The position numbers and the translations under genes are program-made. A stretch of DNA of 64,000 nt. It comes from Dehalococcoidales bacterium. Lineage in GTDB: Bacteria; Chloroflexota; Dehalococcoidia; Dehalococcoidales; UBA5627. This document shows, in pieces, positions 2,581-49,033 of this stretch; positions within the stretch are counted from its first letter, which is position 1; every line of letters begins with the position of its first letter. Location: positions 19,862 through 83,861 of the forward strand of contig DAOUFJ010000018.1 of NCBI GenBank assembly GCA_034429935.1. Reading direction: 5' to 3'. Below the pieces are notes generated by a model. The model had not been told where the DNA came from. It made no database searches and saw only the letters and a program-made list of their open reading frames with translations.

Positions 2581-4497
2581 CTACCTCTCCGATGTTGTAA
2601 TTGCATCAGTAACAGGTAGTTCGATTATGAATTTAGTCCCGTGTCCTAATTCGCTCTCAGCAAAGATTTTGCCGTGATGCTGGGTGATTATATTGTGTGT
2701 CATGCTCAATCCCAATCCCATTCCATCACAGTCGTTTTTAATACTGAAGAACGGAGTGAATATTCTTTCCAGGTTATCCTTGCTTATGCCTGGCCCGTCA
2801 TCGATAAATGATATACGGATGGTATTGTTAATATACTCGGTTTTAACAGTGAAAACACCTTTCTTTTTAGAATTCTTGATAGCCTGCTCGGCATTGAGAA
2901 TTATATTCAAGAATGCCTGTTGCAACTGCACTTCGTCGACAGTAGCTTTTGGCAGATTATCGGCCAGATCGGTGACAATGTCGATGCCGTTCATTTCCAT
3001 CTCGTATGAACGCAGGTCGATAGTGTCCAGTATTATCCTGTTGATATCGGATACGGTTAACCCCGGCTCATCCTGATGTGCGAATGTCAAAAGGCCGGAT
3101 ACTATTTTAGCTGCGCGCTGGGCTTCGTAATTAATCACCTCTATATCTTCCTTGATGTCTTCCGGGAGGTCTTTGTCGATAAGTAATTGTGAAAATCCGA
3201 TGACTCCTGTCAGGGGGTTGTTTATTTCGTGAACCAGTCCTGAAGTTACTTCTCCGATGGATGCCAGACGGCTGGCAGTGTTGAGTTCCTGCTGAATCCG
3301 TTTTTCTCTCTCTTCCGCTTCTTTGATATCCGAAATATCCTGTATGGAGCCGAATTCCTTGGTTACCTTTCCCGAATTATTAAAAACCGAGCATGCTTTG
3401 GAATTGCCGTACCAGGCATCTCCGTTTTTACGGTACAGGCGGATGATGATATTACTGGATTCTTCGTGAAATTCTCCGCTTTCATGCGCATATATTGTGC
3501 TGTGTGCCAGCGACAGGTCTTCGGGGTGAACATGGTTCATAAACAGTTCTTTTGTAGGTGTTACTTCTCCGGGCTGGTATCCGAATAACCGGTACATCTC
3601 GTCACTCCAGATGAGCTCATCATTTTCTATATCGAGATACCAGCTGCCTAATTTGGCTATTCTCTGCGCTTCGGCCAGGCTGGCTTCGCTCTTGCGCAGT
3701 TTCTCTTCCATTTTCTTGCGTTCTGTAATGTCCGAAACTATTGCCAGATTGGCAATATGTTTATTGCTTTCGTCTTTGATTTTCTGTACGAAGGCTTCAA
3801 TCCATATTTGCTCTCTGCCTGTTTGAATGCGATGTTCCCAGAGGGCTTCTCCCCGACTGTCAAAATCCTCAAATTGCTTTCTTATATTGGAGGCTGTGGG
3901 TTCTATTATTTTAAGGGCATCGAGTATTTTTTTACCGATGGCTTCGGATGAGCTGATTTTGAATATATTTTCAGCGGTGCTGTTGAACTGGATTATCTTC
4001 ATACTGGTGTCGGTAATGACCATGCCCTTGCGAATAGCCCGGAAGGCGTAGGTAGAGAATTTACCCTGTTCCTGAATTAATTTGATTTCGGATTTGTCGG
4101 TGATATTGACGATAAAGCCGATAGCGTTTCCTGTTCCCTTCTCTTCTATTGGAATTATGGTTAACTCTACCCATTTGTGTTTGCCCTTTTTCCCCACGAG
4201 GTCAAATTCGTAAAGGAAAGGCTGGTCGTTCGGTTTGTTTGACAAATAGTCGATAGCAATATTACGTACGTCATCGGACGTGTAGAATGATAATTCGGTT
4301 ATTTTTTTACCGGCGATTTCATTTTGTGTATAGCCTGTAATTCTCTCGAAAGCTTTGTTGATATATACGATTACAGCGCCAGAATCGATAAGGCAGAATC
4401 CTGAAACCGATTTATTGAGGTATGTATCAAATATTCTGGTGAAATTACTTATTTCTTCATTATTATTTTGGTGCGAATTGTTTTTATTACTTTCCAC
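2581..4497 (-). CDS. Cytoplasmic multi-PAS sensor histidine kinase
   Basis: 638 aa. PAS/PAC units (ITGYTQNEIAGKK, WSDEMYRLFGYQPGE), H-box VHEINNPLTGVIGFSQLL, ATPase boxes NIILNAEQA, DDGPGI, GMGLGLS. No obvious TM helix. Confidence 0.9.
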   Translation of the reverse strand: MESNKNNSHQNNNEEISNFTRIFDTYLNKSVSGFCLIDSGAVIVYINKAFERITGYTQNEIAGKKITELSFYTSDDVRNIAIDYLSNKPNDQPFLYEFDLVGKKGKHKWVELTIIPIEEKGTGNAIGFIVNITDKSEIKLIQEQGKFSTYAFRAIRKGMVITDTSMKIIQFNSTAENIFKISSSEAIGKKILDALKIIEPTASNIRKQFEDFDSRGEALWEHRIQTGREQIWIEAFVQKIKDESNKHIANLAIVSDITERKKMEEKLRKSEASLAEAQRIAKLGSWYLDIENDELIWSDEMYRLFGYQPGEVTPTKELFMNHVHPEDLSLAHSTIYAHESGEFHEESSNIIIRLYRKNGDAWYGNSKACSVFNNSGKVTKEFGSIQDISDIKEAEEREKRIQQELNTASRLASIGEVTSGLVHEINNPLTGVIGFSQLLIDKDLPEDIKEDIEVINYEAQRAAKIVSGLLTFAHQDEPGLTVSDINRIILDTIDLRSYEMEMNGIDIVTDLADNLPKATVDEVQLQQAFLNIILNAEQAIKNSKKKGVFTVKTEYINNTIRISFIDDGPGISKDNLERIFTPFFSIKNDCDGMGLGLSMTHNIITQHHGKIFAESELGHGTKFIIELPVTDAITTSER

Positions 4498-9160: not shown

Positions 9161-10516
9161 TTAGGAAGTAAGCACATTGGGTTCGGGGGTGAATATCTTC
9201 TCTTCTTGCGGTTTCCTTGCTACAAAAATCAATATGAATACTATTATCATCAGCAAGTTGCGGCGTGCCATTATAAAGACCGGGAAATTCTCGAAATACT
9301 CGAATTCAATATAGTTGAACGGGTATATATATATTGTAAAAGCTCCGGCTATGAGCAGAAGCACGCTGACAAGATTTTTATAGCGGATGTTAAGTATCGG
9401 TATCAGGGGGCAAATCCAGACCATATACTGGGCCGAAAATACCTTGTTAAAGAGCAGGAAGGCCAGTACGGCAATGGCAACATAACGTATGAGCAGCGTT
9501 TCCGTCTCTACCTGTAAAGGGGCTGCCCCGATAGCCTTTTTCCCGTTTCTGTGCAGCTGATAGGCGAACAGCCCGTATGTCGCCAGCAATACGGCAGCCA
9601 TAATATAGAAAGAGATGTTCGCAAGGTTATCTGCCAGGGCGGAAGTAATATTAAAGGAGCCGTAGTTAAAATCGTAATCCACCTGCGTCCATCCGAAAAG
9701 CTGCCCCATTATGACAAATGAGCCGTAGGTGCTTTCGGCATGGAGCCCCCTTTCCAGATGGTAGGAAAACATCGACCATAATGACTGTGGTTCTATAATC
9801 AGCCATGGGATAATCGTGGCGAGAATCACGCCTCCGAAAACAGCGACGCCTTTTGCCAGTTGGGAATACTGTTTTTTGATTAGCAGCCAGATTGCAAAGA
9901 GCGGGGCTATAACAATCGGGAAAATCTTTGCCATTACTCCGAGGGCAAGAACCCCCCAGGCCGTCTTGTTTTTACCGCCGATGAAGGCGGCTACGGCTGC
10001 CAGCGCCATTACTGCAGGCGCCAGGTCGTAACGCTGGGTTACAATAGGGCCGGCGGTTATTGCTATAAGCAGAGTATAGATGGCAAGTGCCTTGACCTTT
10101 GATATGTTGATGCGCTTGGATATATAGGCAATAAGAAATATCGCCAGTATATCGAAAAGCAGCATTTCTACGGTGAAGGCGATGTAGTAGGGCGGGAGTG
10201 TCCGGAACAGCAATCCCGGTATGAGGAAAAGGAGCAACGCTACAGGCGGATATTCGCAATCGAAATCGACATAGGGTATTTGCCCGCTTAGAATATTCTG
10301 GGCGATGATATTTTCTATAGCTCCCGGGGTGGGGGCATAATAATCGTAGAATCCATAAGTCCAGCCCAGGAAAACCCCCAGAAAGAGTATGGCGTGTATA
10401 ATAATCCAGAAAGGCATTTTTTGAGACAGCCTTTCCAGTCCGCTGCATGCTTTTCCGTATATGTTGCAGGAGCTTTTCAGTATCAGGGTACCTGTTTCCT
10501 TTCTCGTGCTGCTCAT
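9161..10516 (-). CDS. Polytopic membrane glycosyltransferase, DUF2029/GT87-like
   Basis: 451 aa, about 11 hydrophobic helices. The first-loop motif IPYVDFDCEYPPVA resembles DUF2029-type polyprenyl-phosphate-sugar-dependent transferases (from memory, not searched). Sits next to the nucleotidyltransferase. Confidence 0.55.
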   Translation of the reverse strand: MSSTRKETGTLILKSSCNIYGKACSGLERLSQKMPFWIIIHAILFLGVFLGWTYGFYDYYAPTPGAIENIIAQNILSGQIPYVDFDCEYPPVALLLFLIPGLLFRTLPPYYIAFTVEMLLFDILAIFLIAYISKRINISKVKALAIYTLLIAITAGPIVTQRYDLAPAVMALAAVAAFIGGKNKTAWGVLALGVMAKIFPIVIAPLFAIWLLIKKQYSQLAKGVAVFGGVILATIIPWLIIEPQSLWSMFSYHLERGLHAESTYGSFVIMGQLFGWTQVDYDFNYGSFNITSALADNLANISFYIMAAVLLATYGLFAYQLHRNGKKAIGAAPLQVETETLLIRYVAIAVLAFLLFNKVFSAQYMVWICPLIPILNIRYKNLVSVLLLIAGAFTIYIYPFNYIEFEYFENFPVFIMARRNLLMIIVFILIFVARKPQEEKIFTPEPNVLTS

Positions 10517-14886: not shown

Positions 14887-15996
14887 ATGAAAGACATTCG
14901 AGTAGAAAAACTGGCTGACCTTCTGGTCAGGTATTCCGTATCCGTACAGAAAGGCGATAAGGTCAAGATACGGGGGGATTATGCCGCCGCTCCCATGGTA
15001 AAAGCTGTTTATGCCGAGGTATTGAAAGCGGGGGGGCATCCCATCGTATTCATGGAACCGGAAGGCCTGACCGAAGTATTCTATAAATACGCATCCGAAG
15101 AACAGCTTAAATTCATCCATCCGCCCGAGAAGCTAATGATGGATACATATGATGTTACGATAAGCCTGGGCGGTGAAAGTAATACCAAGGCATTGAGCAA
15201 AATCGATCCTTTACGCATGGTCACACGCCATCAGGCAAGGACTGAACTGATGAATACCCAGATGCGGCGTTCCGCCGATGGGGAATTCCGCTGGACTTAC
15301 GCCATCTTCCCGACCAATGCCTATGCGCAGGATGCCGAGATGAGCCTTTCGGAATACGAGGATTTTGTTTACAGTGCCTGTCTGCCGGATATGGACGACC
15401 CTGTGGGTTACTGGCAGCGTTTTTCAAAACGGCAGGAGAATATCATCCAGTGGCTGGAGGGAAAGAAAACGGTCTATATAAGAGGAGAGGAGACTGAAAT
15501 TACTCTCAGCATCGAAGGCCGCCCCTTTATAAACTGCGACGGGCGTTACAACATGCCTGACGGAGAGGTATTTACCAGCCCGGTTGAGAATAGTGTTAAC
15601 GGTCACGTTTATTTCTCCTATCCGGCTATCGAGGATGGCAAAGAGGTGACCGGTATCAGGTTGTGGTTCGAAAACGGCAAAGTGGTGAAAGCCAGCGCCG
15701 AGAAGAACGAGGATTTTCTGCTTAAAATGCTGGATACGGATGCCGGTTCACGCACGCTCGGCGAATTCGCCATCGGCACCAGCCCCAATATTAACAAGTT
15801 TACCCGTGAAATACTCTTCGACGAGAAAATCAACGGCAGTTTTCACATGGCGCTGGGGGCCGGTTACCCGGAAAGCGGCAGCAAGAACGAATCGGCGATT
15901 CATTGGGATATGATATGCGACCTGAGAAACGGCGGAGAAATCCGCGTCGACGGGGACGTGCTGCACAAGAACGGCAGGTTCGTTATCGATTTTTAG
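14887..15996 (+). CDS. Family M29 aminopeptidase (AmpS/PepS/aminopeptidase T type)
   Basis: 369 aa. EKLADLLVRYSVSVQKGDKV at the start and EFAIGTSPNI...FDEKINGSFHMALG...AIHWDMI at the end, typical of thermophilic-metalloprotease M29. SD GGAGGTG lies upstream of the ATG. Transcribed divergently from kamA. Confidence 0.85.
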   Translation: MKDIRVEKLADLLVRYSVSVQKGDKVKIRGDYAAAPMVKAVYAEVLKAGGHPIVFMEPEGLTEVFYKYASEEQLKFIHPPEKLMMDTYDVTISLGGESNTKALSKIDPLRMVTRHQARTELMNTQMRRSADGEFRWTYAIFPTNAYAQDAEMSLSEYEDFVYSACLPDMDDPVGYWQRFSKRQENIIQWLEGKKTVYIRGEETEITLSIEGRPFINCDGRYNMPDGEVFTSPVENSVNGHVYFSYPAIEDGKEVTGIRLWFENGKVVKASAEKNEDFLLKMLDTDAGSRTLGEFAIGTSPNINKFTREILFDEKINGSFHMALGAGYPESGSKNESAIHWDMICDLRNGGEIRVDGDVLHKNGRFVIDF

Positions 15997-16022
15997 CTGA
16001 ATAGTAATATAAATCCATCTGG

Positions 16023-16174
16023 TTTCCCCCCCCTGATCCTTCGTCCACCCGTTGTGGTCTCAGGATGACAGGCGTTGGGAATTGTCATGCTGAATTCGTG
16101 AGGGACGAATGAAGCATCCTGGGCAGAGTGGAAAAACGGCTTCCCTTGGGGGGAAAGTCCCGACTAGTCGTGAC
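16023..16174. repeat. Intergenic array of modular palindromic repeats (array R1)
   Basis: Three modules. (1) 16035-16071 GATCCTTCG...CTCAGGATGACAG. (2) 16084-16123 GTCATGCTGAATTCGTGAGGGACGAATGAAGCATCCTGGG, a hairpin that recurs at 25811, 32258(-), 48570, and in partial form (lacking the GTCATGCTGA head) at 49971 and 50513. (3) 16157-16174 GTCCCGACTAGTCGTGAC, compare 25597. Confidence 0.8.
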
Positions 16175-16356
16175 TGGGCATCTTATGTATGGCTTGTTAA
16201 TACGTTTTTGTTAAAAATCAGAATTGATTAAAACGGATGCATGAAATAATGCGCCTGTTAAAAATTGACTGCGGCTAAAAACTCTGTGCTAAAAAGGCGA
16301 AATTATTGCTTCATCAATGATATAATTATTCATCATAAATTTTAGAGGGTATAGAA

Positions 16357-16944
16357 ATGTATAACGGTCTCGAGGTTAAATTACTGGCGATTACTCCCGA
16401 CAGCGAGAATCTGGTGGAGAAAGCCGGCAGGCTGTGCTATTCCAGCGGCGATAAACAGGGAACCAACGAGAACTGGATATCGGCACGCATAAAACAGGGA
16501 CATGAAAGCCTGGTGGAGCACGCTTCGGCGACGTTTTATATAAAGGCTTCCCGCGCCCTGACGCATGAACTGGTAAGGCACCGTATCGCCAGCTATTCAC
16601 AGCGCAGCCAGCGATATGTCCGAGAGCTTCAGGCCGATTATATAACGCCTCCCGAATTCGAAGATAAGGATTCGGAGATAGCAAAAGTATTCCACGAGGC
16701 GATGAAGGCGGCATGGGACAGCTATAAGAAGCTGCTGGATGCCGGCATGAAACCGGAAATTGCCCGTTACGTTCTGCCGAATGCCTGCATGACGGAAATC
16801 ATCTGCACATGGAATTTCCGTGAAATCCGCCATATTTTAAAGCTGCGCACCAGCCCGGCGGCTCTGCCGGAAATCCGCGAGGTCGCCCAAAAAATTGCCG
16901 ATATAATGAAAGTTCAGGCTCCGAAGGTCTTCGGGGATTTGTAG
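16357..16944 (+). CDS. thyX: FAD-dependent thymidylate synthase
   Basis: 195 aa. The ThyX signature RHRxxSxxxxSxR is present as RHRIASYSQRSQR. Typical size and SLVEHAS motif. Confidence 0.93.
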   Translation: MYNGLEVKLLAITPDSENLVEKAGRLCYSSGDKQGTNENWISARIKQGHESLVEHASATFYIKASRALTHELVRHRIASYSQRSQRYVRELQADYITPPEFEDKDSEIAKVFHEAMKAAWDSYKKLLDAGMKPEIARYVLPNACMTEIICTWNFREIRHILKLRTSPAALPEIREVAQKIADIMKVQAPKVFGDL

Positions 16945-17294
16945 ATATAGAACTCATACTTTTGTAAAAATCTGTTGAAAGCACCTTTGCTGAAAACCTT
17001 GGCAGTAGATTCGAAAATGAATGCTTGAACACTAACTGGTTTAATAATCTGGGATGTGCTCGTGATTTAATTAGAGAATGGCTAAGGAATTATCATGGGG
17101 TGCTGTGTAACGCATTGAAAGGGATGCCCTTTAAGGATATACTGAAATGAAAGGTAGATCCTAAGCAGTGGTTGCATCGATTCCGGGATAAACCTACATT
17201 TATCTCGTATGTATTCTTGTGAAAAGCTCCCAATCTGGAATGATAGAATGAACAGTATTGAAATTATAAAAATAGGTGCTTATTTTTAAGAAAG

Positions 17295-18893
17295 ATGAGG
17301 TTTTCTTTCTACAATATGACCAACTCAAATACCAAAGGGAATGGTTATCTAATTAAAGATAAATGGTATAAGACTATTGTTCAAACTGCCACGGAAGGCT
17401 TTTCCTTGCTGGATAATATCGGGAAAATTGTAGACGTCAATGATTCCTATTGTAATATGATTGGCTACCATCGAGACGAGCTTCTCTCAATGAGTATACA
17501 GGAAATTGATATTAGATTCCTTGATCAAATCGAGGTATTTGAGGAAGAAATCCGGAAAGTCAAAAAACTCGGCGGTATTGCGAGTGAAGTACAACATAAG
17601 ACCAAGAATGGTCAAATTGTTGATCTTTGGGTTAGTCTTAGATATCTGAATACAAATCCTGGCTTTCTATTCTGCTTTCATAGAGATATTACAGAAAAGA
17701 AGAGATTGCAGCAACAAATTATTGAATCCGAAGAAAGATATCGTGCTCTGATAGAAGTAGGCGACAGAATCGGAGAAGCTATTGTCATGTTGCAGAATAT
17801 TAAAAACATGGAGGGAATGCAGACTTTTGTTAGTGATGAATGGTGTTGTATTACTGGTTATACAAGGGAAGAATTGTTAAAGATGTCTTTTTTTGAAATT
17901 CTGCACCCCAGCTACTGTAAAGATACTCTGGATTGTCACCTTGGTAAAATAAATGGAGAAGATATTCCACGAAAAATCGAAGCGTCTATTATTAGGAAAG
18001 ATGGAAAAGAAATTCCCATAGAATTTACCAGTGCCTTTACCAGTTTTCATGGAAAGAGAGCTATTGTTGCCTATATCAGGGAAATCACTGAACGTAAGAA
18101 GATGGAAACTGAGCTTAAGAAATATCAAGAGAACCTTGAATATCTTGTAAAAGAGCGCACCAACAAGCTGGAAGGGATTATCAAGCAGCGGGTTGAATTT
18201 AATAGAGCTCTGGTACATGAGTTAAAAACGCCTCTCACAGCCATTATAAATTCCAGCGAATTATTGACTCAGCAACGCCGGGAGGAAACGACTCAAAGAT
18301 TAGCCCAAAATATATTTAAGGGGGGCATTTTTCTTAATAATAGAATCGATGAACTTCTCGATGTGATAAGAAGTGAGGTCGGGTCACTATGTGTTAATTG
18401 TAAATCTATTGACCCGATTAAACAAATTCGCGAGGCAGTCGAGGAAATGTCTTCATTAGCCGCGAGAAAAGGGCAATCCATTATTTTGAACATTCCAGAT
18501 GAACTGCCCGAAATCTGGGCTGATAAACAGAGGATGCAGCAGGTTCTATTGAATCTGATTTCCAACGCTATAAAATTTAATTCCGATGAAGGCAGGGTAA
18601 TTATAAGAGCAAGAGAAAAAGATAATTATGTGATTTTCGAGATTGTGGATGAGGGTAAAGGAATAAGTAGCGCAGAAGCGCTGAGGTTGTTTGAACCTTA
18701 TTACCGGAAAGAGAGTGACCGTGATCATCTCAGTGGTTTAGGTCTAGGCTTGTCCCTGTCCAAGAAATTGGTAGAACTCCATAATGGAAAAATATGGTAT
18801 AAAAAACGAGATGGAATTAATGGAAGTATATTTGGTTTTTCGATACCTGTATCAAGTACGGTGGGAGTACAAACGGAGGCAGAAAATGAATGA
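17295..18893 (+). CDS. PAS-domain sensor histidine kinase
   Basis: 532 aa. Two PAS units, H-box VHELKTPLTAIINSSELL, ATPase boxes LISNAIKFN, DEGKGI, GLGLGLS. Visibly more AT-rich than the flanking genes (by eye). Confidence 0.9.
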   Translation: MRFSFYNMTNSNTKGNGYLIKDKWYKTIVQTATEGFSLLDNIGKIVDVNDSYCNMIGYHRDELLSMSIQEIDIRFLDQIEVFEEEIRKVKKLGGIASEVQHKTKNGQIVDLWVSLRYLNTNPGFLFCFHRDITEKKRLQQQIIESEERYRALIEVGDRIGEAIVMLQNIKNMEGMQTFVSDEWCCITGYTREELLKMSFFEILHPSYCKDTLDCHLGKINGEDIPRKIEASIIRKDGKEIPIEFTSAFTSFHGKRAIVAYIREITERKKMETELKKYQENLEYLVKERTNKLEGIIKQRVEFNRALVHELKTPLTAIINSSELLTQQRREETTQRLAQNIFKGGIFLNNRIDELLDVIRSEVGSLCVNCKSIDPIKQIREAVEEMSSLAARKGQSIILNIPDELPEIWADKQRMQQVLLNLISNAIKFNSDEGRVIIRAREKDNYVIFEIVDEGKGISSAEALRLFEPYYRKESDRDHLSGLGLGLSLSKKLVELHNGKIWYKKRDGINGSIFGFSIPVSSTVGVQTEAENE

Positions 18894-19581
18894 TTTGAGC
18901 AAAGTCATCATTATCGAAGATAGCGATGAAATTGTTGAGACCACCTCGCTTACTCTGCAAATACGCTGGCCGAATGTTGAGATCCATACTTCCGATAGCG
19001 GGAAGAAAGGATTGACCATGATAGAGAAACATCATCCATCTATTGTTATCCTTGATTTGGGGCTACCTGATATGAGCGGGTTTGATGTTTTAAAGGATAT
19101 TCGTAGCTTCTCTGATATTCCGGTTTTAATACTGACGGTAAGAGGGGACGAAGCGGACGTAGTGAAGGGGCTGGAGCTGGGTGCCGATGGATATGTTATT
19201 AAGCCCTTCCGGCAGATGGAACTGCTGTCAAGAATAAGAGCTATTCTGCGCAGGCAGGGTGCTATTTATGAGGATAATATAATTGCCGTTGACAACTTTA
19301 GGTTCAATCCCTCCGAGCAGATGGTAACAATTGATGGGAGGCAAATAACACTTACCCGCAGCGAAAATCTTATTCTTTTTAAATTGATTAAAAATCCCAA
19401 TATGGTGATGAGCTACTCACGATTAGCGGAAGCTGTATGGGGTAGCGATTATCCGTGTGCATCTGCCAGTTTAAAAGTACATATACGTCGTCTGCGTCAA
19501 AAAATTGAACGGAATCCGGCTCATCCAACATTCATCCTGACTAAAAGAGGGCTGGGTTACCTGTTTTCTAAAACGAGCTAG
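18886..19581 (+). CDS. OmpR/PhoB-family response regulator (receiver + winged-helix DNA-binding domain)
   Basis: The track ORF starts at 18784. I place the start at ATG 18886 (MNDLSKVIIIEDSDE), which overlaps the kinase stop by 8 nt. Receiver (ILDLGLPDMSG, VIKPF) plus Trans_reg_C (LTRSENLILFKL...VHIRRLRQKIE...LTKRGLGY). Confidence 0.88.
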   Translation: MNDLSKVIIIEDSDEIVETTSLTLQIRWPNVEIHTSDSGKKGLTMIEKHHPSIVILDLGLPDMSGFDVLKDIRSFSDIPVLILTVRGDEADVVKGLELGADGYVIKPFRQMELLSRIRAILRRQGAIYEDNIIAVDNFRFNPSEQMVTIDGRQITLTRSENLILFKLIKNPNMVMSYSRLAEAVWGSDYPCASASLKVHIRRLRQKIERNPAHPTFILTKRGLGYLFSKTS

Positions 19582-19695
19582 CTTCAATATTGATTCACTA
19601 TACACTGCTGCGGCTGTAAATAGTTTGAGCAGTCGTTTCTATTCTCCACTGAAAAATATCCCTGTATTTTTAACCTCCGTTCGGCGTTTTGTTAT

Positions 19696-19717
19696 CAAAC
19701 TGTAACCAAACTGTAAT
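19696..19717 (+). promoter_or_regulatory. Candidate OmpR-type regulator binding site (tandem 11-bp direct repeat)
   Basis: CAAACTGTAAC followed directly by CAAACTGTAAT (10/11 identical, one helical turn apart). Lies about 150 bp upstream of the receiver gene and molybdoenzyme operon, and just downstream of the OmpR-family regulator gene. Confidence 0.35.
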
Positions 19718-19865
19718 CAACAATTTACTCTATCACGTTCAAAATTAACCGACTCGTAACTATAGCATTATATTATTGTCCCCGACATCAGATGATATGG
19801 GCTCTGTAGTTAGAACCATCACAATTAAGTATACCCTCAAGAGAGCTACTGGTGGCAAAAATCAG

Positions 19866-20267
19866 ATGAAGATATTTATTGCCGATTCCAATAATGAAGC
19901 TATGGAAGGTATGGTATCGATTTTAAACCGACGCCAACCCGATTGGACGGTGGTTATCATGAATTCCGGCAAGCAATGTCTCGATACATTAAGAAACGGC
20001 AGTTGCCCGGATGCATTTATTTTGGGCATACAACTTACCGATATGTCCGGTTTAGAACTGGTCATTAAGATTCGCGATGATTCCGATATGCCTATCATCG
20101 TCTTATCCAGTGATGAAGATATTCATACGCTGGTAGAAACCTTTGATGCGGGGGCCAATGATTATATAGTCAAACCTTTCAATGAGGTTATATTCGTTGC
20201 CCGTTTAAAGGCACTGGTCAGGCGAAGAATATGGAATAGTCAGGCAATTTATAATCAATTGAAGTAA
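19866..20267 (+). CDS. Stand-alone response-regulator receiver
   Basis: The track ORF starts at a TTG at 19776. The likely start is ATG 19866 (MKIFIADSNNEAMEG...). Receiver motifs ILGIQLTDMSGLE and IVKPF, no output domain. Confidence 0.8.
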   Translation: MKIFIADSNNEAMEGMVSILNRRQPDWTVVIMNSGKQCLDTLRNGSCPDAFILGIQLTDMSGLELVIKIRDDSDMPIIVLSSDEDIHTLVETFDAGANDYIVKPFNEVIFVARLKALVRRRIWNSQAIYNQLK

Positions 20268-20381
20268 GTGTATCCCTGATATAGCCAGTATTAACGGCAG
20301 GAACTATGGGTTTAAAAAGTGGAGGTGATGCCTATTCAACAATTTATTATTAGTATCTATAACCAATGAAAGGAGAAAGAA

Positions 20382-23345
20382 TTGAAAGAAGAAAAAAGAA
20401 AACACACAGAGAATGAAGGGAAAAAGCAATCTAATGAAGTTTCGAGAAGAGACTTTCTGGTTGGTGCCAGCACTGTAGTCGTTGGTGGCGCTATCGGCGC
20501 TGGAATGTTTTCAAGCTGCGATGGAGAAACTGTTACCAAGACGATTGAGACCACTAAGACAGTTGAAAAGACAACGACGTTGGTTGGTAGTGGGGCGGTT
20601 ACCGTAACTGAGACCAAACAGGTGGGAGCTGATGAGACGATAACTTCAACAGTTACTTCCACTAAAATAGAAGGTGGCGTTGAGCCGGCATTTGAGGAAG
20701 AGACAACTGTAATAAAACAAATTAGTCCCGGTGGTATAACCGGAGAGCCTTGCTGCGTTGATGTCAAGAACGGCAAAATAGTCAGGATCAGACCGTTGCA
20801 TTATGACTGGAAGTATACTAAAGATGAACTTGCTGATGCCCTGTGGGCTTATGAGGCCAAAGGCAAGACTTTTGAAGCAGGCATAAAATCACTACCCAGT
20901 TACTTTGCCTTAGCCTATAAAAAGAGGATTTATTCCCCTATTAGAACCAAATATCCGCTACAGAGAGTCGATTGGGAGCCCGGTGGCGGCGACAATGTGA
21001 ATCCGCAGAATCGTGGTAAAAGCAAGTTCAAGAGAATTACTTGGGATGAGGCTACCAGTATAGTCGCCAGCGAAATAAAGAGGGTAAGAGAGACATATGG
21101 TAATTATGCCATATTATGTATAGGAGCAGACGGGCATCACGAGACCAAGAATGTTCATTCCGGCCAGGGTGCTCATATGATGCTTATGAATTTGTGTGGA
21201 GGTTATACCCTCGAGTTCAGGAATGCCGACAGCTGGGAAGGATGGTACTGGGGGGCGATGCATGTATGGGGAACCGGAGAAAACGGGCTTGCGGCTGGGA
21301 ATGCATCAGCAACCGTTACCGGAGACACCATAGAGGTAAACTCTATGCAGACTTCACTTTTCGATACTTCAGAGAACACTGAGATGATTGTGTATACGGG
21401 CTGTGATTATGAGACTACACCCCAGGGATTTGCCGGCCAGTATATGAGCAGAGTGGCGTCTTGGCTGGGAGAATTGGGAATAAAACAGGTATATGTATCG
21501 CCCGAACTGAATTATCAGGGCGCCGCACATCCGGACAAATGGATACCGGTACTGCCCAACACGGATATGTGCTGGCAAATGGCTGTGATATATATCTGGA
21601 TAGTGGAGGATACCTACGACAAAGATTTTGTTGAGACTCATACAATAGGTTTTGATAAGATAAGGGCCTATATCTTGGGAGAAGATGATGGTATTCCCAA
21701 GACGCCAGCGTGGGCGGCACCGAGGTGTGGCATGAAAGAGTGGACGATTAAGGCTCTGGCTAGGCAATGGGCGGCCAAAAAAACGTCAACAGGCCATTAC
21801 TTTGGAAGTCCTATGGCCAGGGGCCCGTATTCGACTGAACCGGCCAGGTGGGAAGCAGTACAGCTAGGAATGCAGGGGATAGGTAAACCGGGTGTCATGC
21901 AACTCTACGGCTCGACGCTGGCTGCACCTCCCCATGTCGGGCCGGCGGTCGGGATGACAATGGCGTTAGGCAGGTATCTGCCATTCTCGGCTACGCCACA
22001 GGTTATCGCCAGGACTCTGGTTCACCGGGCTATTATAGACGGACATTCCGAGCAATGGGGTCTTACCGGATTCATGCCGGTTGACGACCAGTTTATTAAA
22101 TATATCTACCCAATAGCCTCCGATGAGGGAGGTACCGAGATCCATATGGCATGGAGTGAAAAGCCCTGTAATACTGCTTGTTGGAACCATAGTAACAAGT
22201 TCATAGATGCCTTCAGAACCTCTAAGATAGAATGCTATGTCGTTAATCATCAATGGCTTCAGAACGATGCTATATTTGCCGATATAGTATTTCCTGTTAG
22301 CTGCCAGTGTGAGGAAGACGATATATATTCTATCTCGACCCCTTGCTCTGTAGAACTGGCGGGCGTTTGCGTATCGAAAAAGGCTGTAAAACCCATAGGG
22401 GAGTCTAAGAGCGACTACGAGATAGCTGCTGCGGTGTCCAAAAAGTTGGAGGAGTATGGTGGCCAGTATGAAGGTCTGTACGACGCATATACCGAAGACA
22501 TGACTATTGAAGAGAGGATAGAATCGGGCTTTGCGCAGTTTGAACTGGATGACATAATCAGTTGGGAGGATATGCAGGAAAAGCAGTACTGTTTAACTCC
22601 GCTGGTGCCCGGTTGGGAACAAATAAAGCCTACTATGAAATCGTTTTATGACGACCCCGAGTCAAACCCGCTGGATCTGCCATCAGGCAAAATGGAGTTT
22701 TATTCTGATAGATTGGCTACAAGCTTCCCTGATGACAAAGAAAGAGGGCCAATGCCTAAATATGTAATAGGCGGCCCTGAATCTGAAGGTTGGATACATG
22801 ATGAAAGTCTATATGGTGAGAGGGTAAAAAAGTATCCTCTGCTTCTGGAAGCGAACCATCCAAGGTGGAGACATCATCCGCAATGTGATGATATAGCCTG
22901 GTTCAGGGAAATCCCGACTATGAAGATCAAAGGTTACGATGGCTATATGTACGAGCCGGTCTGGATACATCCCACAACTGCTGCAGAGAGGGGCATAGAG
23001 CATGGTGATATCGTTAAAGTATATAACGATAGAGGAATCGAGCTCGGTGGAGCCTATGTAACTGAAAGGATGATCCCCGGAGCAGCACATATGGATCACG
23101 GCGCTGCAGTTGACATGATAACGGATAGAATTAATAGAGGAGGAACTGTCAATCCAATAACACCTGAGATGGGAAGTTCTAAATATTGTTGGGGAATGGC
23201 TGTATCCGGTTTTCTGGTTCAAGTTGAAAAGCTTGATCCGGCGCAGATGGAGGAATGGCGAAAGACTTATCCTGAAGCATTTGCCAGAGATTATGATCCG
23301 GCCTATGGAATTAAATATGATGGTTGGGTTGAAAAGGAGGTATAG
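20382..23345 (+). CDS. Exported molybdopterin (DMSO-reductase-superfamily) oxidoreductase catalytic subunit; TAT signal + lipobox + Thr-rich stalk; pyrogallol-transhydroxylase-like (no FS0 Cys motif)
   Basis: 987 aa. Twin-arginine SRRDFLVG (RR at 20445-20450), hydrophobic region, then MFSSC (Cys46 at 20517-20519). About 65 aa of T/V/E/K-rich linker follows. The molybdopterin fold then starts at CCVDVKNGKIVRIRP without a CxxCxxxC...C cluster motif. C-terminal MopB_CT-like barrel (GDIVKVYNDRGIELGGAYVTERMIPGAAHMDHG). Confidence 0.8.
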   Translation: MKEEKRKHTENEGKKQSNEVSRRDFLVGASTVVVGGAIGAGMFSSCDGETVTKTIETTKTVEKTTTLVGSGAVTVTETKQVGADETITSTVTSTKIEGGVEPAFEEETTVIKQISPGGITGEPCCVDVKNGKIVRIRPLHYDWKYTKDELADALWAYEAKGKTFEAGIKSLPSYFALAYKKRIYSPIRTKYPLQRVDWEPGGGDNVNPQNRGKSKFKRITWDEATSIVASEIKRVRETYGNYAILCIGADGHHETKNVHSGQGAHMMLMNLCGGYTLEFRNADSWEGWYWGAMHVWGTGENGLAAGNASATVTGDTIEVNSMQTSLFDTSENTEMIVYTGCDYETTPQGFAGQYMSRVASWLGELGIKQVYVSPELNYQGAAHPDKWIPVLPNTDMCWQMAVIYIWIVEDTYDKDFVETHTIGFDKIRAYILGEDDGIPKTPAWAAPRCGMKEWTIKALARQWAAKKTSTGHYFGSPMARGPYSTEPARWEAVQLGMQGIGKPGVMQLYGSTLAAPPHVGPAVGMTMALGRYLPFSATPQVIARTLVHRAIIDGHSEQWGLTGFMPVDDQFIKYIYPIASDEGGTEIHMAWSEKPCNTACWNHSNKFIDAFRTSKIECYVVNHQWLQNDAIFADIVFPVSCQCEEDDIYSISTPCSVELAGVCVSKKAVKPIGESKSDYEIAAAVSKKLEEYGGQYEGLYDAYTEDMTIEERIESGFAQFELDDIISWEDMQEKQYCLTPLVPGWEQIKPTMKSFYDDPESNPLDLPSGKMEFYSDRLATSFPDDKERGPMPKYVIGGPESEGWIHDESLYGERVKKYPLLLEANHPRWRHHPQCDDIAWFREIPTMKIKGYDGYMYEPVWIHPTTAAERGIEHGDIVKVYNDRGIELGGAYVTERMIPGAAHMDHGAAVDMITDRINRGGTVNPITPEMGSSKYCWGMAVSGFLVQVEKLDPAQMEEWRKTYPEAFARDYDPAYGIKYDGWVEKEV

Positions 23346-23350
23346 ATTAA

Positions 23351-24163
23351 ATGAAGGCTTTTGTCATAAATGTCAATAAGTGTACAGGGTGTTATTGCTG
23401 CCAGATTGGATGTAAGGATGAGCATTGTGGTAACGATTGGACGCCTTATGCTAAGCCTCAACCGGAGTGGGGGCAGTTCTGGATCAAGTTAAATGAGATT
23501 GAGAGAGGACAAATACCGCAAGTCAAGGTAAGCTATATCCCAATCCTTTGTCAGCACTGTGTAGACGCGCCGTGTATTCAGGCATGTCCTATAGAAGGGG
23601 CTTTGTACACTAGGGATGATGGACTGGTTATTATCGATCCCAAGAAATGCACCGGGTGCCGGAACTGTATTGATGTTTGTCCTTACGATGCTATCTTCTA
23701 TAATGATGCTCTTGCTCTTGCGCAGAAGTGCACTGGCTGTGCGCATATTCTGGACAGGGGATGGCCAATTACGGAACCCAGATGTGTTGATAATTGCCCG
23801 CATGGAGCCATTGTTATAGGTGAAGAGTCTGCTCTGTCCAATTCAATGGTCGGGTCGGAAACACTGCATTCTGAATACGATCTTACCACCAAGGTCCATT
23901 ATATAGGGCTGCCCAAGAGGTTTGTTGCCGGTACTGTTTATGATTCGACTAACAATGAAGTAGTTATCGGTGCTACCTGTACCCTGACTGGAATTGCAGG
24001 ATCTGCGGAAACTACAACAGATGTTTTTGGTGATTTTTGGATTGAAGATTTGAAAGAGGGTGACTTTACGTTAACGATAGCCAGTGGGAGTACGAGTAAA
24101 ACGATAACCGGGAGCACTGTTGATGGAGATATAGGCTTGGGTGATGTAGATATCAACGGGTAG
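23351..24163 (+). CDS. Fe-S electron-transfer (beta) subunit with C-terminal Ig-like/carboxypeptidase-regulatory-like domain
   Basis: 270 aa. Four Cys groups: CTGCYCCQIGC, CQHCVDAPCIQACP, CTGCRNCIDVCP, CTGCAH...CVDNCP. The C-terminal ~80 aa (VAGTVYDSTNNEVVIGATCTLTG...TDVFGDFWIEDLKEGDFTLTI) looks like a CarboxypepD_reg beta-sandwich. Starts 5 nt after the alpha-subunit stop. Confidence 0.85.
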   Translation: MKAFVINVNKCTGCYCCQIGCKDEHCGNDWTPYAKPQPEWGQFWIKLNEIERGQIPQVKVSYIPILCQHCVDAPCIQACPIEGALYTRDDGLVIIDPKKCTGCRNCIDVCPYDAIFYNDALALAQKCTGCAHILDRGWPITEPRCVDNCPHGAIVIGEESALSNSMVGSETLHSEYDLTTKVHYIGLPKRFVAGTVYDSTNNEVVIGATCTLTGIAGSAETTTDVFGDFWIEDLKEGDFTLTIASGSTSKTITGSTVDGDIGLGDVDING

Positions 24164-24171
24164 TTAAGTTA

Positions 24172-24212
24172 TATAAAGGGGGGGAGCGTTTAGGCCCTTC
24201 CCCCCCTTTATA
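24172..24212. other. Intercistronic perfect 14-bp-stem hairpin flanked by 8-bp direct repeats
   Basis: TATAAAGGGGGGGA (24172-24185), a 13-nt loop, then TCCCCCCCTTTATA (24199-24212). TAGTTAAG occurs at 24161-24168 and again at 24211-24218. Confidence 0.7.
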
Positions 24213-24243
24213 GTTAAGAAAATAAGAAAGGATTAAGGTAGCT

Positions 24244-24798
24244 ATGAGCAGTTTTAGAGAATGGATATTTCGAGGCTTGGTTATAATAGCTATTGGTTTA
24301 CTGTTTTTATCGTGGTTTACACCGTGGTGGAATGCTGATGTCCTGTCGATAGGTGGCTCTATTACAATACATCCATGGGGGCTCGAAAGTAACTTGGGGT
24401 ACTTCGCCACGTATATGACCGGTGCCGATATGCCGGTCTGGTTTGCTCCAATGATGTGGATTTATCTGGGATTATGTGTCGCCATGTTATTAGCCAGCTT
24501 CTTTGTAAAAGAAAGAGTGTTTAGCCTTGGCAGGTTCAAGCTTCCATGGAATCGATTACTTATTGGAGTTGCCGGTTTTTCATATATAATCGTTGTTGTT
24601 ACGGCTTTTATTTATGCCTCGATAAGCACTGGTAAGTATGGTATTCAGTTCGTAGGACGCTCGTTTGTCAAGGTCGGGCCAGAGGGGACATATGTGGAGT
24701 CGGGTCTGTTGTGGGGATATTGGCTGGCTTGTGCAGTGGGGCTTTTTCTTGTCCTTCTCGCTTTGGCACGTAACAAGATAGTGGGTAAGCCCAAATAG
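24244..24798 (+). CDS. Uncharacterised 4-5-TM membrane protein (putative anchor subunit of the molybdoenzyme)
   Basis: 184 aa, hydrophobic helices, no family recognised (not NrfD/DmsC-like by eye). Assignment is by operon position only. Confidence 0.5.
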   Translation: MSSFREWIFRGLVIIAIGLLFLSWFTPWWNADVLSIGGSITIHPWGLESNLGYFATYMTGADMPVWFAPMMWIYLGLCVAMLLASFFVKERVFSLGRFKLPWNRLLIGVAGFSYIIVVVTAFIYASISTGKYGIQFVGRSFVKVGPEGTYVESGLLWGYWLACAVGLFLVLLALARNKIVGKPK

Positions 24799-24912
24799 AC
24801 TGATTTGTGAAAATATTCTAGCCAGTAAAAGTCACGAAAATAAGCAGGAGGTTTTTCCAATCCAGTGAATGAAGTGTATTGTATAGTCACACATGTTTAA
24901 GAGGAAGATTAA

Positions 24913-25455
24913 GTGATGGTTGCCCTGTTGAGAAAATTTCACGCGGTGTTTTTCATCACTATACTTATTTTTATAACAGCCTTCCTGCTTGTTATTACGG
25001 ATGATGTTACAAGGGAAAAGTTGAAAGCCAAGCAGGATAAACAAATAGTGGAGATGCTCGAGGGAATATTCCCAGAAGCTAGTTTTTATACAGTTGAGAA
25101 TGATATATATACAATATACAACGACGGTAGGAATGAGATAGGCTATGCCTTTTATGCAGCAGGGAAGGGATGTGGTGGGGAGATTGTTGTTTTTGTCGGT
25201 CTCAAGAACATGGAGACGATACAGGGGATAGTTGTTATCTCACACAAAGAGAGACGATTAAGCGGTTTGGAATCTACTGTAGGACTGGATTTCACTCCGC
25301 TTGTCGCTCAATTTGTTGGTTTAAGAATTGATGATTGTTATCTGGTAAAAAAAGGGGGGCAGGTGGATGGAGTAAGCGGAGCGACTATAAGCTCTACAGC
25401 TCTGGTTGATATTGTTCGTAATGCAGCACTGGAAAAGGTCGCATTGATAGGTTAG
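24913..25455 (+). CDS. Membrane-anchored FMN_bind-domain protein (covalent-flavinylation motif)
   Basis: 180 aa. One N-terminal TM helix, then an RnfG/NosR-type FMN-binding domain ending in DGVSGATISS. The predicted flavinylated Thr158 is encoded at 25384-25386. Confidence 0.8.
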   Translation: MMVALLRKFHAVFFITILIFITAFLLVITDDVTREKLKAKQDKQIVEMLEGIFPEASFYTVENDIYTIYNDGRNEIGYAFYAAGKGCGGEIVVFVGLKNMETIQGIVVISHKERRLSGLESTVGLDFTPLVAQFVGLRIDDCYLVKKGGQVDGVSGATISSTALVDIVRNAALEKVALIG

Positions 25456-25472
25456 ATTGTAAAACTGTGCAA

Positions 25473-25536
25473 GGTCGCCCAGAAAATCTGGGATATAATG
25501 AAAGAACAGGCTCCCAAGGTTTTCGGGGATTTGTAA
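25473..25536 (+). pseudogene. thyX: Orphan 3'-terminal fragment of a thyX gene (last 20 codons + stop)
   Basis: 64 nt align without gaps to thyX 16881-16944, with 54/64 identical by my count. The fragment encodes VAQKIWDIMKEQAPKVFGDL*; thyX encodes VAQKIADIMKVQAPKVFGDL*. Homology stops at a TAG at 25454-25456 upstream, and no upstream thyX body is present. Confidence 0.8.
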
Positions 25537-25564
25537 ATTTGAAAGGCAGTATTAAATAACATTC

Positions 25565-25923
25565 ATCATCCTTCATCCAATTGCAACTGGATGACATCCC
25601 GACTAGTCGAGACTTATGATAAAGCTTCCTTCGGGGGAGGCCTTTAAACGTTGTAATTGCGAGATGTTATAATTTCCGTTCGTCCTGAGTCCCGATTCAT
25701 CGGGAAAGGATTTTAGCTGAAATCTGCCCAACGTTACCGCCGCTATGGTTCGACAGGCTCACCACGAACGGCTCTCGTTGTGTCATTTCCGTAAAGAAAA
25801 AAATGTCATTGTCATGCTGAGTTCGTGAGGGACGAACTCAACATCTGGGGTGGGGGATATTTATAATAATACTTTTTCCACCCCCAAGATTCTTCGGTCG
25901 TTACACTCCCTCCAGAATGACAG
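25565..25923. repeat. Intergenic array of modular palindromic repeats (array R2)
   Basis: Contains ...GGATGACA, TCCCGACTAGTCGAGAC (25597-25613), GTCCTGAGTCCCGATTCATCGGGAAAGG, CGCCGCTATGGTTCGACAGGCTCACCACGAACGG, GTCATGCTGAGTTCGTGAGGGACGAACTCAACATCTGGGGTGGGGGA (25811-25857) and GATTCTTCGGTCGTTACACTCCCTCCAGAATGACAG (25888-25923). Confidence 0.8.
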
Positions 25924-25958
25924 TAAGTTTGGATTTTTTTAAAAACAGTATAAATCCC

Positions 25959-27116
25959 TTACTCGTACCCCGTCATCTCTAAATATCCTGTGCCGATAAC
26001 TTCATCGGGATTTTGTTCATCGTAGATATTCACCGCACCCTCCCAGTAGCGCGTGCTCAGGTCTAATTCCTGTCCGTTGAAAGCGGCTTCGATTATGAAT
26101 GTCTTTCCGAGGGGCATCACCTGCGCCTGCCATTTTACCGAATAAACTACTCCCGTGGTGCTCTTCCACGTTTCTAGAACCGTCAGTACAATGTCTCCGG
26201 TTTCCAGTTTTTCGGTAGTGCCGTCGCCGTTGACTATCAGGCCTTCGTTATAAGGGTAAACGCTGCCGTCCTTGTATCTCAACTGGAAGTAGACGATTTC
26301 GGTATTATCGTTCAACTGCATTGAGAACCAGTCCCAGCCGCCCTGGTCTTCACTGAGGGTGCTGGTGCTCCATTCACGGTCGAGCCAGCTGTTGCCGCTG
26401 ACTTCATATCTCGTGCCATCTATCTCGATATAACCGTCGGTCGCCAGCCTGGTAATCGAGTAGTAGTATGAGGCGCTGGCTTTATCGACGCTCTTGTAGC
26501 TGAGGCCGTTATCCCCCTCGAAGACGATATTCTTCAAGGGCGTTACGTCTAATGACAGCGTTACGCCGTCTTTCGAGGCGTAAAGCTGCCAGGGGAAGTC
26601 TCCGTCACCCGTGCCCAGTATATACCAGTCCTCCACATTGATTTTGAATGGTTCTTCCTGATAACCGGCAAGCCCCAGCGCATCGCGGTTGAACTTTTCG
26701 AAACAGTAGAATTCCTCATTCTCTATGTCCGATATCGTGAAGTGAGCCATGTAGATCTGGCTGGTTCCCCAGTCAGAAACCCTGGTTATGTCCATCGGGC
26801 TTAAAGAAATTCGGAAGAAGGTCAACTGGTAACCGAAACGGTTGCCTTCCTCATCGTAAAGATTCCCTGTAAAATACCACCACTCATTGCGGAAATCCTC
26901 GTGGGGCGCGTGATCGGCAGGAAAGCTGAAGTCTATTACCTTATCTGCGATGCTGTATCCCTCCGTATCGCTGTTGCTCAACGCTTCGATGATATTGATT
27001 TTTGCTCCGCCTGTGCTGGCTTTTTCGCAGCTACAGCCGCTGAAAGTAGCGGATGCCGTTATCAGGATTAAAACCAGCAGGGGGCAGATTAATTTCAGGC
27101 TCGAACTTTTCAGCAT
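25959..27116 (-). CDS. AttH/CrtC-like lipocalin-domain lipoprotein
   Basis: 385 aa. Signal peptide with lipobox (ATFSGC). HAPHEDFRNEWWYFTGNLYDEEGNRFGYQLTFFR is typical of the AttH/hydroxyneurosporene-synthase-like family. Lies 1 nt downstream of the FtsX permease. Confidence 0.75.
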   Translation of the reverse strand: MLKSSSLKLICPLLVLILITASATFSGCSCEKASTGGAKINIIEALSNSDTEGYSIADKVIDFSFPADHAPHEDFRNEWWYFTGNLYDEEGNRFGYQLTFFRISLSPMDITRVSDWGTSQIYMAHFTISDIENEEFYCFEKFNRDALGLAGYQEEPFKINVEDWYILGTGDGDFPWQLYASKDGVTLSLDVTPLKNIVFEGDNGLSYKSVDKASASYYYSITRLATDGYIEIDGTRYEVSGNSWLDREWSTSTLSEDQGGWDWFSMQLNDNTEIVYFQLRYKDGSVYPYNEGLIVNGDGTTEKLETGDIVLTVLETWKSTTGVVYSVKWQAQVMPLGKTFIIEAAFNGQELDLSTRYWEGAVNIYDEQNPDEVIGTGYLEMTGYE

Positions 27117-32257: not shown

Positions 32258-32446
32258 CCCCTCCCCGGATGCTTTGTTCGACCACCACGAACTCAGCATG
32301 ACAGTTATTTTTACCCTCTTTTCCAGTGGAAGGATACCTCCCTTTTAAAAGGGTACCCTGTCGCTCTGAGCGAAGCGAAGAGCCTGGATGCCATTCGACA
32401 ACTGTATAATTCTTCGGTCTGATTTATCAGGCCTCAAGGATGGCAG
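32258..32446. repeat. Intergenic array of modular palindromic repeats (array R3)
   Basis: 32258-32302 is the reverse complement of the GTCATGCTGAGTTCGTG...GCATCCGGGGAGGGG module. 32340-32353 is the perfect palindrome CCCTTTTAAAAGGG. 32358-32446 is CTGTCGCTCTGAGCGAAGCGAAGAGCC...ATTCTTCGGTC...CAAGGATGGCAG, an imperfect long inverted repeat. Confidence 0.8.
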
Positions 32447-48500: not shown

Positions 48501-48550
48501 AACTTGTTATTTCTTATCCCTCTATTGGGAAGGGGAGAGTGCTGGAAACA

Positions 48551-48632
48551 CCCTCCCCTTCGTTATTTTGTCATGCTGGAGTCCCGACTTGTTGGGACTC
48601 CAGCATCTGGGGAGGGGATTAATCATTCCCCC
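48551..48632. repeat. Palindromic repeat array R4
   Basis: CCCTCCCC..., then GTCATGCTGGAGTCCCGACTTGTTGGGACTCCAGCATCTGGGGAGGGGA (48570-48618; an 11-bp perfect stem GCTGGAGTCCC/GGGACTCCAGC), then a GGGGAGGGGATTAATCATTCCCCC hairpin. Confidence 0.8.
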
Positions 48633-48637
48633 GGTCA

Positions 48638-48925
48638 TTATTTTATTATTTTTGTAATTATGACTGTCCCTATTATTATGAAAATGCCTATCGAAATGGC
48701 TATGAGCCATGCCATGCAGATGTCTGTAATACTAAAAAAAAGACTATCCAATGCTAAAAGTGCTATAACTAGACTAAGTATACTTGTTACTCTACTTGAT
48801 ATTATATTTCTTTTATTTGTGCTGTTTTTTAGTGCTACATCAAATCCTTTAGATGTAATTAAAATTAATTGATTATTGTCATACTCTATTAGTTTTTGTT
48901 CTTCCAAAAAAGAGGTTATTACCAT
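48638..48925 (-). CDS. Hypothetical small membrane protein (soluble ~45-aa N-domain + 2 TM)
   Basis: 95 aa in a very AT-rich region. The N-terminus FLEEQKLIEYDNNQLILITSKGFDVAL resembles the wing of a winged-helix domain. No family recognised. Confidence 0.5.
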   Translation of the reverse strand: MVITSFLEEQKLIEYDNNQLILITSKGFDVALKNSTNKRNIISSRVTSILSLVIALLALDSLFFSITDICMAWLIAISIGIFIIIGTVIITKIIK

Positions 48926-49033
48926 GAGTTTATTCCCACTTATTTTAAGCTTTTGGGCTAAAGGATTAGAATTATTGTTATCCTTATTATATTTATGAGG
49001 GGCATGTTACCAAATCTCATCTAAAACATTAAT

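Follow-up and report, generated by a model that had tools for sequence, protein, structure and literature searches.

Housekeeping genes that code for proteins can harbour islands in their 3′ end, examples being SCCmec in rlmH/orfX and ICESt1 and ICESt3 in fda. In Dehalococcoides, the ssrA islands are bounded by a 20-bp repeat of the 3′ end of their target gene and carry, next to the left junction, a module of serine recombinases; some of them are without the integration module and are discussed by the authors as cis-mobilisable, and the comparison with SCC has also been made for these islands (PMC3146451). Cis-mobilisable elements (CIMEs) are decayed integrative elements which keep attL and attR (PMC5704250), and for integration hotspots a diversification through homologous recombination within the core genes on either side has been proposed (PMC5635113). 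The subject of this report is a block of foreign genes that separates the core genes thyX and attH in a 64,000-nucleotide (nt) stretch of DNA from an uncultured Dehalococcoidales bacterium (the whole of that stretch being referred to below as the window), and whose far end is marked by an orphan copy of the last codons of thyX. The two tail copies are, with moderate confidence, the attL-like and attR-like junction repeats of ~8.6 kb of foreign DNA, which would have entered the thyX 3′ end through a crossover with a circle.

A second copy of the final 64 nt of thyX (16881-16944) stands at 25473-25536, with 54/64 bases identical and without a gap, exactly as had been counted in an earlier reading of the letters alone (the sequence-only reading), whose figures for the shared residues and whose tally of the differences are also correct. 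A repeat finder extends the pair to an ungapped direct repeat of 70 nt at 84% identity (16877-16946 / 25469-25538), which is the longest direct repeat within 14-28 kb. There is no homology between the copies upstream of 16877/25469, nor over more than two bases past the stop codons, and tblastn with ThyX finds no further thyX-like piece in the window. In translation, the thyX copy reads VAQKIADIMKVQAPKVFGDL and the orphan copy VAQKIWDIMKEQAPKVFGDL, with 18/20 residues identical. The ten nucleotide differences span the whole repeat, from 16890 to 16944; four of them are synonymous and fall at third positions, five lie in just two codons (GCC/TGG and GTT/GAA), and the last is in the stop codon (TAG/TAA). 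In a shuffle control (200 windows, either strand) the best match to the 64-mer averages 32.6/64 and never exceeds 36/64. The same arrangement of thyX, block and orphan tail is covered by a separate Logan assembly (L002, 9.7 kb) and by a JGI contig that runs on into attH, and the assembly look-up counts three further similar places besides those listed.

The block is an insertion between two core genes. In all informative relatives, the sister species and the outgroup L024 included, thyX is followed directly by attH and the block is absent, in at least 11 lineages; the ABC transporter genes come next, which is the outcome that the sequence-only reading had anticipated for a comparison of synteny. 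The gap between thyX and attH runs from 174 to about 1600 nt in eight species-level genomes (ThyX 92-94% identical) and is 58 nt in a more distant genome (ThyX 88% identical), and attH is likewise the gene next to thyX in the metagenome contigs. Scanning metagenomes with ThyX contributed three loci only, and the sister species was reached by way of the cluster in which AttH falls at 90% identity. This sister species is collinear with the window on both sides, at 94.7-96.2% DNA identity, and has thyX, 404 nt and then attH, with neither the block nor a second thyX tail between the two genes; the thyX genes themselves are 95.4% identical in nucleotides, as against 82-85% for the other relatives. 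Nor does any of the ~20 related loci fetched hold a second thyX, full or partial, a full one being what the sequence-only reading had named as the sign of simple paralogue decay. What follows the intact thyX (16945-17294) is unmatched in every relative, and parts of what follows the orphan tail (about 25645-25958) match the relatives' thyX-attH spacers, at 86% over 128 nt in L007 and at 79% over 25657-25826 in the sister species. Taken as a whole, 16944-25953 is unlike the sister species.

The cargo is, moreover, foreign to its surroundings. Its GC content is 42.8%, in keeping with the AT-richness that had been judged by eye, and the GC content at third codon positions (GC3) lies between 0.36 and 0.46 in all seven block genes (median 0.43; 0.355 in the sensor kinase gene), whereas the median of the remaining 46 open reading frames (ORFs) is 0.56 (p=1e-4). 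The tetranucleotide profile of the block correlates at 0.754 with that of the remainder of the window, the lowest value among 56 sliding windows (median 0.907), such that the composition is discordant in both of these respects. The same discordance is seen at the level of relatedness: in clusters at 90% identity all seven block proteins stand alone, bar start-site variants of the same strain, as compared with 40 members for ThyX and 8 for AttH, and the best relative of the molybdoenzyme outside this strain is 57% identical, as against 93-95% for ThyX. Comparisons of composition and of phylogeny, both proposed in the sequence-only reading, hence set the block apart.

The coordinates of the features are collected in Table 1.

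Table 1. Features of the thyX-attH interval, in window coordinates.
Feature	Coordinates	Strand	Basis or remark
Intact thyX, 195 amino acids (aa); core gene, neighbours conserved in all relatives	16357..16944	+	Pfam Thy1, E=2e-63
Left repeat copy (attL-like)	16877..16946	+	last 21 codons of intact thyX + 2 nt
Non-coding left block edge; holds IS3 relic and kinase promoter region	16945..17294	+	matches no relative
IS3-family transposase relic, C-terminal ~60 residues	16968..17150	+	5′-truncated ~20 nt past the thyX stop
PAS-domain sensor histidine kinase	17295..18893	+	Pfam PAS, HisKA, HATPase_c; JGI start at 17316
OmpR-type response regulator	18886..19581	+	Pfam Response_reg + Trans_reg_C
Single-domain response regulator	19797..20267	+	Pfam Response_reg
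Molybdopterin oxidoreductase, 987 aa; pyrogallol-hydroxytransferase-like large subunit	20382..23345	+	Pfam; twin-arginine motif SRRDFL
4Fe-4S subunit with CarboxypepD_reg domain	23351..24163	+	Pfam
184-aa hydrophobic protein	24244..24798	+	no Pfam match; hydrophobic stretches
Membrane-anchored FMN-binding protein, last block gene; contains SGATIS	24916..25455	+	Pfam FMN_bind; sequence reading
Junction, 13 nt, from stop of last block gene to orphan thyX tail	25456..25468	+	direct sequence reading
Right repeat copy (attR-like), orphan thyX tail	25469..25538	+	no start codon, no thyX sequence upstream
thyX-attH spacer, 420 nt, rich in dispersed repeats	25539..25958	.	attH-proximal part homologous to relatives' spacers
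attH/CrtC-like lipocalin gene; core, adjoins thyX in all relatives	25959..27116	-	convergent; ABC transporter genes next

As judged from its domains and motifs, the cargo looks like a regulated extracytoplasmic redox module, a prediction that follows from the twin-arginine motif of the oxidoreductase, which would be Tat-exported, and from the membrane anchor of the FMN-binding protein. The nearest solved structure to the oxidoreductase is 4v4c, the large subunit of pyrogallol hydroxytransferase (E=3e-93). The 184-aa hydrophobic protein is a probable membrane anchor, and promoter-like sites lie ahead of the kinase gene at 17258-17315. Read from 24913 to 25536, the orphan tail is in frame with the FMN-binding gene, a TAG stop and six codons coming between the two; this shared frame is probably a coincidence.

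Homologous operons elsewhere keep the core gene order and are made up of a response regulator, the molybdoenzyme, the Fe-S subunit, a membrane protein and an FMN-binding protein. The gene for the 184-aa protein holds the same position in them, and in L021 and L022 the molybdoenzyme homologue is likewise preceded by the gene for the single-domain response regulator. Both of these latter operons are near tyrosine integrase genes (L021:8276-9175; L022:1-254), which is only suggestive with regard to a matching integrase for the block; this operon family may often travel on islands. A search of the two integrase-linked operons for bounding repeats or tRNA genes gave nothing useful. The operon in L021 also adjoins a type I-C CRISPR-Cas locus, and in L022 two operons that are neighbours, close to the homologue of the molybdoenzyme, are each preceded by a copy of a direct repeat of 82 nt (3473-3554 and 9386-9467; 84% identical), which may be a regulatory region common to both. 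The closest relative of the molybdoenzyme itself (P0122 in L020, the protein at 57%) comes from the same sample and is apparently on a 92,265-nt NCBI contig together with the enzyme of the window. Since the two appear to share a contig, the genome probably holds a second, old paralogous molybdoenzyme operon.

In the non-coding DNA between thyX and the kinase gene, the frame from 16932 reads KSVESTFAENLGSRFENECLNTNWFNNLGCARDLIREWLRNYHGVLCNALKGMPFKDILK*, and in it can be recognised the end of an IS3-family transposase. It matches Pfam rve_3 (E=7.9e-5) and positions 316-352 of the 369 in the NCBIfam profile transpos_IS3 (E=0.016), and in tblastn it matches 2243 plasmid records with E values down to 6e-6, the annotated ones among the matches listed being IS3-family transposases. 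Conserved C-terminal residues (RPH, P) are altered, and no second copy of the relic is present in the window or in any locus compared. The statement of the sequence-only reading that the block has no integrase or transposase holds, therefore, for intact genes, none being found among the ORFs of at least 120 aa, and is to be amended by this truncated relic. Neither a composite transposon nor an insertion driven by the insertion sequence itself is borne out: two IS copies, terminal inverted repeats and an intact transposase are all lacking, and what is there is one truncated relic. Indeed, a comparison of the block ends for direct or inverted terminal repeats gives nothing above shuffled sequence except the thyX tail. 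With no recombinase left, and only a truncated IS3 relic at the thyX-proximal end, the island would be a decayed element, one that could at most be moved in cis by a recombinase supplied from elsewhere.

The relationship between the two tail copies is informative about where they come from. At all ten differing sites (10/10), the three-base GCC/TGG codon included, both states are present in functional thyX orthologues, and neither copy has a private change in its 64 nt. The peptide that the orphan encodes is the same as the end of the genuine ThyX proteins in L009 and L011. Given that both states at all ten sites occur in functional orthologues, the copies look like two alleles drawn from the functional thyX pool of the clade and not like one copy that has drifted. 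In other words, the derivation proposed in the sequence-only reading, from a functional but diverged thyX and not from a fresh local copy, agrees with the wider set of orthologues. The orphan tail, moreover, shows no decay, and the absence of neutral decay argues against an ancient event; with a sister species that is also without the block, an ancient mobility, one of the two options given in the sequence-only reading, is not supported.

On the reading that the tails are junction repeats, a DNA circle would have borne a single thyX tail of ~70 nt that derived from a different member of this clade. After one reciprocal crossover between this circle and the chromosomal thyX tail, the left end would have thyX in full, and the orphan tail would lie at the right end, beside the old thyX-attH spacer. 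Such a crossover, whether site-specific or driven by short homology, would keep the essential thyX whole. The event may have taken place in this lineage, or the finished structure may have been imported later by homologous recombination through thyX and attH. Several features are those expected of a site-specific island, namely repeats derived from the target together with an intact gene, an empty site in relatives and a foreign cargo. The sequence-only reading had compared the arrangement with an element that integrates into a gene 3′ end and supplies a replacement end. The core of that account is supported; its specific mechanism is a candidate one, given that a recombinase is missing, that it is ambiguous which of the copies is native, and that the whole variable segment may have come by homologous recombination.

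A trace of the crossover itself may be preserved in the tails. The intact thyX differs from that of the sister species at 19/520 positions in the body of the gene (3.65%; 96.3% identical) and at 8/68 in the tail (11.8%), and the orphan differs from it at 10/68, all of these mismatches lying in the first 38 positions such that the last 30 nt are identical. By gene position, the gene copy matches the sister species at 541-543 and 557-558, and the orphan does so at 540, 567, 573 and 588. This complementary mosaic fits, if weakly, one reciprocal crossover in CAGGCTCC (16915-16922 / 25507-25514). The native tail reconstructed under the crossover model has 5 mismatches to the sister species, as against 8 or 10 for the unmixed models, and when likelihoods are roughly compared the mosaic is ahead by about 5 to 8 log units, with the choice of breakpoint not yet penalised.

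A number of observations weigh against this account, and they are best considered together. The mosaic depends on about seven independent differences, to which position 540 is an exception, and the same mosaic would be expected had the sister lineage once carried the block and lost it through recombination between the repeats. Furthermore, L004/L017 and L019, which are block-free, are identical over thyX positions 1-452, show 15 differences in 453-573, and are then identical at 698/700 bases downstream; this patch of ~120 nt is a short recombination tract at the very place of the repeat, and it weakens what can be drawn from the mosaic. The longest run identical in both tail copies is 14 nt. 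Across the 64 kb, the Pfam scan finds no intact integrase or transposase among ORFs of at least 120 aa, and hence no tyrosine or serine recombinase domain of the kind that a site-specific island would be expected to have, and there is no tRNA or tmRNA (transfer-messenger RNA) gene in the window. Repeated use of the site is also not seen, a second thyX tail being absent from the ~20 related loci and from viral contigs, the latter having been scanned without a match for a degenerate thyX-tail pattern. Finally, the spacer past the orphan tail is just 79% identical to that of the sister species, and this only in part, from which it follows that a single simple integration since the split from the sister species does not explain everything. 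The weak mosaic, the partial spacer match at 79% and the patches at the thyX tail of block-free genomes leave room for the further option that the whole segment from ~16860 to 25954 may have been imported, or may have been replaced in the sister species, by homologous recombination in thyX and attH.

An alternative which would also yield one complete gene and one displaced tail is the truncation of a second thyX. Here, a linear donor with a complete thyX and the block would have entered upstream of, or within, the resident thyX, cutting it down to its last 21 codons; homology would account for the join on one side and illegitimate joining for that on the other. Relative to the sister species, thyX is indeed rearranged on both of its flanks (a 1.78-kb MFS transporter gene having given way to 296 nt), the right junction lies just 13 nt past a stop codon, as a deletion endpoint might, and the divergence of the intact thyX from the sister species climbs from about position 504. 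The body of thyX, however, is as close to the sister species as the flanking core genes are and thus looks native, whereas an untouched resident tail should match the sister species throughout, which the orphan, differing at 9-10 of its first 38 positions, does not. Two thyX copies, moreover, are found in no relative. This alternative is an unlikely one.

Less likely still is a local duplication, in which the insertion would have duplicated ~70 nt of its target and one of the copies would later have been rewritten by a patch from the thyX of a relative. Short recombination patches do exist in block-free genomes, as the comparison of L004/L017 with L019 makes clear, and both copies in the window share a rare A at gene position 549. 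The differences, however, are spread over the whole repeat, and, the DNA past the stop codon being foreign, the gene copy could have been rewritten in this way only through a crossover within the 14 nt that precede that codon. We know of no insertion mechanism that duplicates 70 nt of target, which counts against a local duplication; IS3-family elements duplicate 3-5 bp. The last alternative, that the repeat is a chance similarity or an artefact of assembly, has nothing found in its favour and can be dismissed, given that the observed match far exceeds the shuffled maximum with the frame and 18/20 residues kept, that independent assemblies agree, making an assembly error unlikely behind the arrangement, and that copies 84% identical would not make an assembler mis-join.

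Apart from the block, the thyX-attH spacer is itself variable. It is empty in most relatives, holds two small genes (100 aa and 166 aa) at L011:10736-11731 and L012:538-1539, and in one strain of the sister species contains a PLD-like gene (PLDc_2; L029:4209-5003) that lies 11 nt past the thyX stop; none of these other insertions (L011, L012, sister strain) has a thyX-tail repeat. On the other side of thyX, most relatives have an MFS transporter gene between the M29 peptidase gene and thyX. In the window, the M29 peptidase gene is likewise upstream of thyX and the MFS gene is absent, a repeat-rich spacer of 296 nt (15996-16291) replacing the 1.78-kb gene of the sister L026 (7168-8944, in the orientation of the window), such that both flanks of thyX are variable. 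Since what lies between these two core genes varies and their edges carry a signal of recombination, the thyX-attH spacer is a hotspot of insertion and recombination.

The spacers on either side of this region are rich in dispersed repeats. Modules of CCCGACTAGTCGnGAC occur at 16159 and 25598, and GTCATGCTGArTTCGTGAGGGACGAA occurs at 16084 and 25811, with related copies elsewhere in the window and around thyX in block-free relatives. The flanking modules to which the sequence-only reading had drawn attention are hence real, at 16159 and 25598; being clade-wide dispersed repeats that surround thyX, and lie elsewhere, in relatives without the block, they are rejected as its ends. A dispersed family of ~45 nt (GTCATGCTGA.TTCGTGAGGGACGAA...) is present at 16081-16123, 25808-25850 and 32258-32306 in the window and at many intergenic sites of L004-L019, and it was probably this repeat that caused the break of the Logan contig between the orphan tail and attH. 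At 48504-49675 in the window are two ORFs of low GC (0.24-0.36) and GC3 (0.19-0.29) with no Pfam match, and the palindromic repeat recurs in weaker form inside the first of them (48583) and ~800 nt past the second (50499); the two ORFs probably represent a further small islet of foreign DNA.

As to what the block may mean for its host, it marks a route by which an uncultured Dehalococcoidales lineage of a non-dehalogenating type would have gained a complete, regulated and extracytoplasmic molybdoenzyme module, as predicted from its genes. The module was gained either after the split from the sister species, the flanks of which are about 95% identical, or independently of it. In this clade, then, the thyX-attH junction is a hotspot of gene gain, and the orphan tail provides a simple marker with which to find more islands, or the donor, in new metagenomes. 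A broader proposal, which on present indications is rather improbable, is that the captured tail is a portable homology handle. Cassettes without a recombinase, each with a captured ~70-nt thyX tail, would on this proposal move among related Dehalococcoidales, entering and leaving thyX by single crossovers in short homology. If so, each cycle would leave converted patches in the last ~120 nt of thyX, and the L017/L019 patch and the complementary mosaic would be such footprints. A search of the literature for thyX as an integration site found no report, as judged from the titles and abstracts of the papers that it covered.

How, then, does the locus stand with respect to the systems described at the outset? 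As in SCCmec and the ICESt elements, the insertion is in the last codons of a conserved protein gene, the reading frame is kept by sequence that the element supplies, and there are direct repeats at both ends. SCCmec and the ICESt elements differ from the block in that they encode their own recombinases and have repeats that are short (about 15-27 bp) and nearly identical. By structure, the block falls within the definition of a CIME. Its repeats, however, are diverged and without a long identical core, and neither a cognate integrase nor a neighbouring intact element is known for it. The likeness to integration hotspots lies in the varying content of the spacer, which in different genomes holds nothing, two small genes, a PLD-like gene or the block, in the lack of a recognisable mobile element, and in the recombination patches at the edge of the flanking core gene; diversification of the kind proposed for such hotspots (PMC5635113) does not by itself, however, produce a duplicated gene tail, for which an extra event of the single-crossover type is needed.

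The closest comparison within the same bacterial order is that with the ssrA islands. The block differs from these in several respects: its target is protein-coding and not a tmRNA gene, which places it outside the ssrA islands proper; its repeat is 64-70 nt long and 16% diverged, as against a conserved 20 bp; the left junction has only the IS3 relic in place of the DsiB/DsiA serine recombinase module; and the cargo is a molybdoenzyme and not a set of reductive dehalogenases, with no tandem repeat arrays. What the two have in common is the low GC content, the break in local gene order, and the position at the 3′ end of a single-copy essential gene which is left intact and whose end, as a direct repeat, bounds the far side. 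The block does not reveal a new mechanism. With it, thyX would add a protein-coding target to the order's single known class of 3′-end islands, that of ssrA.

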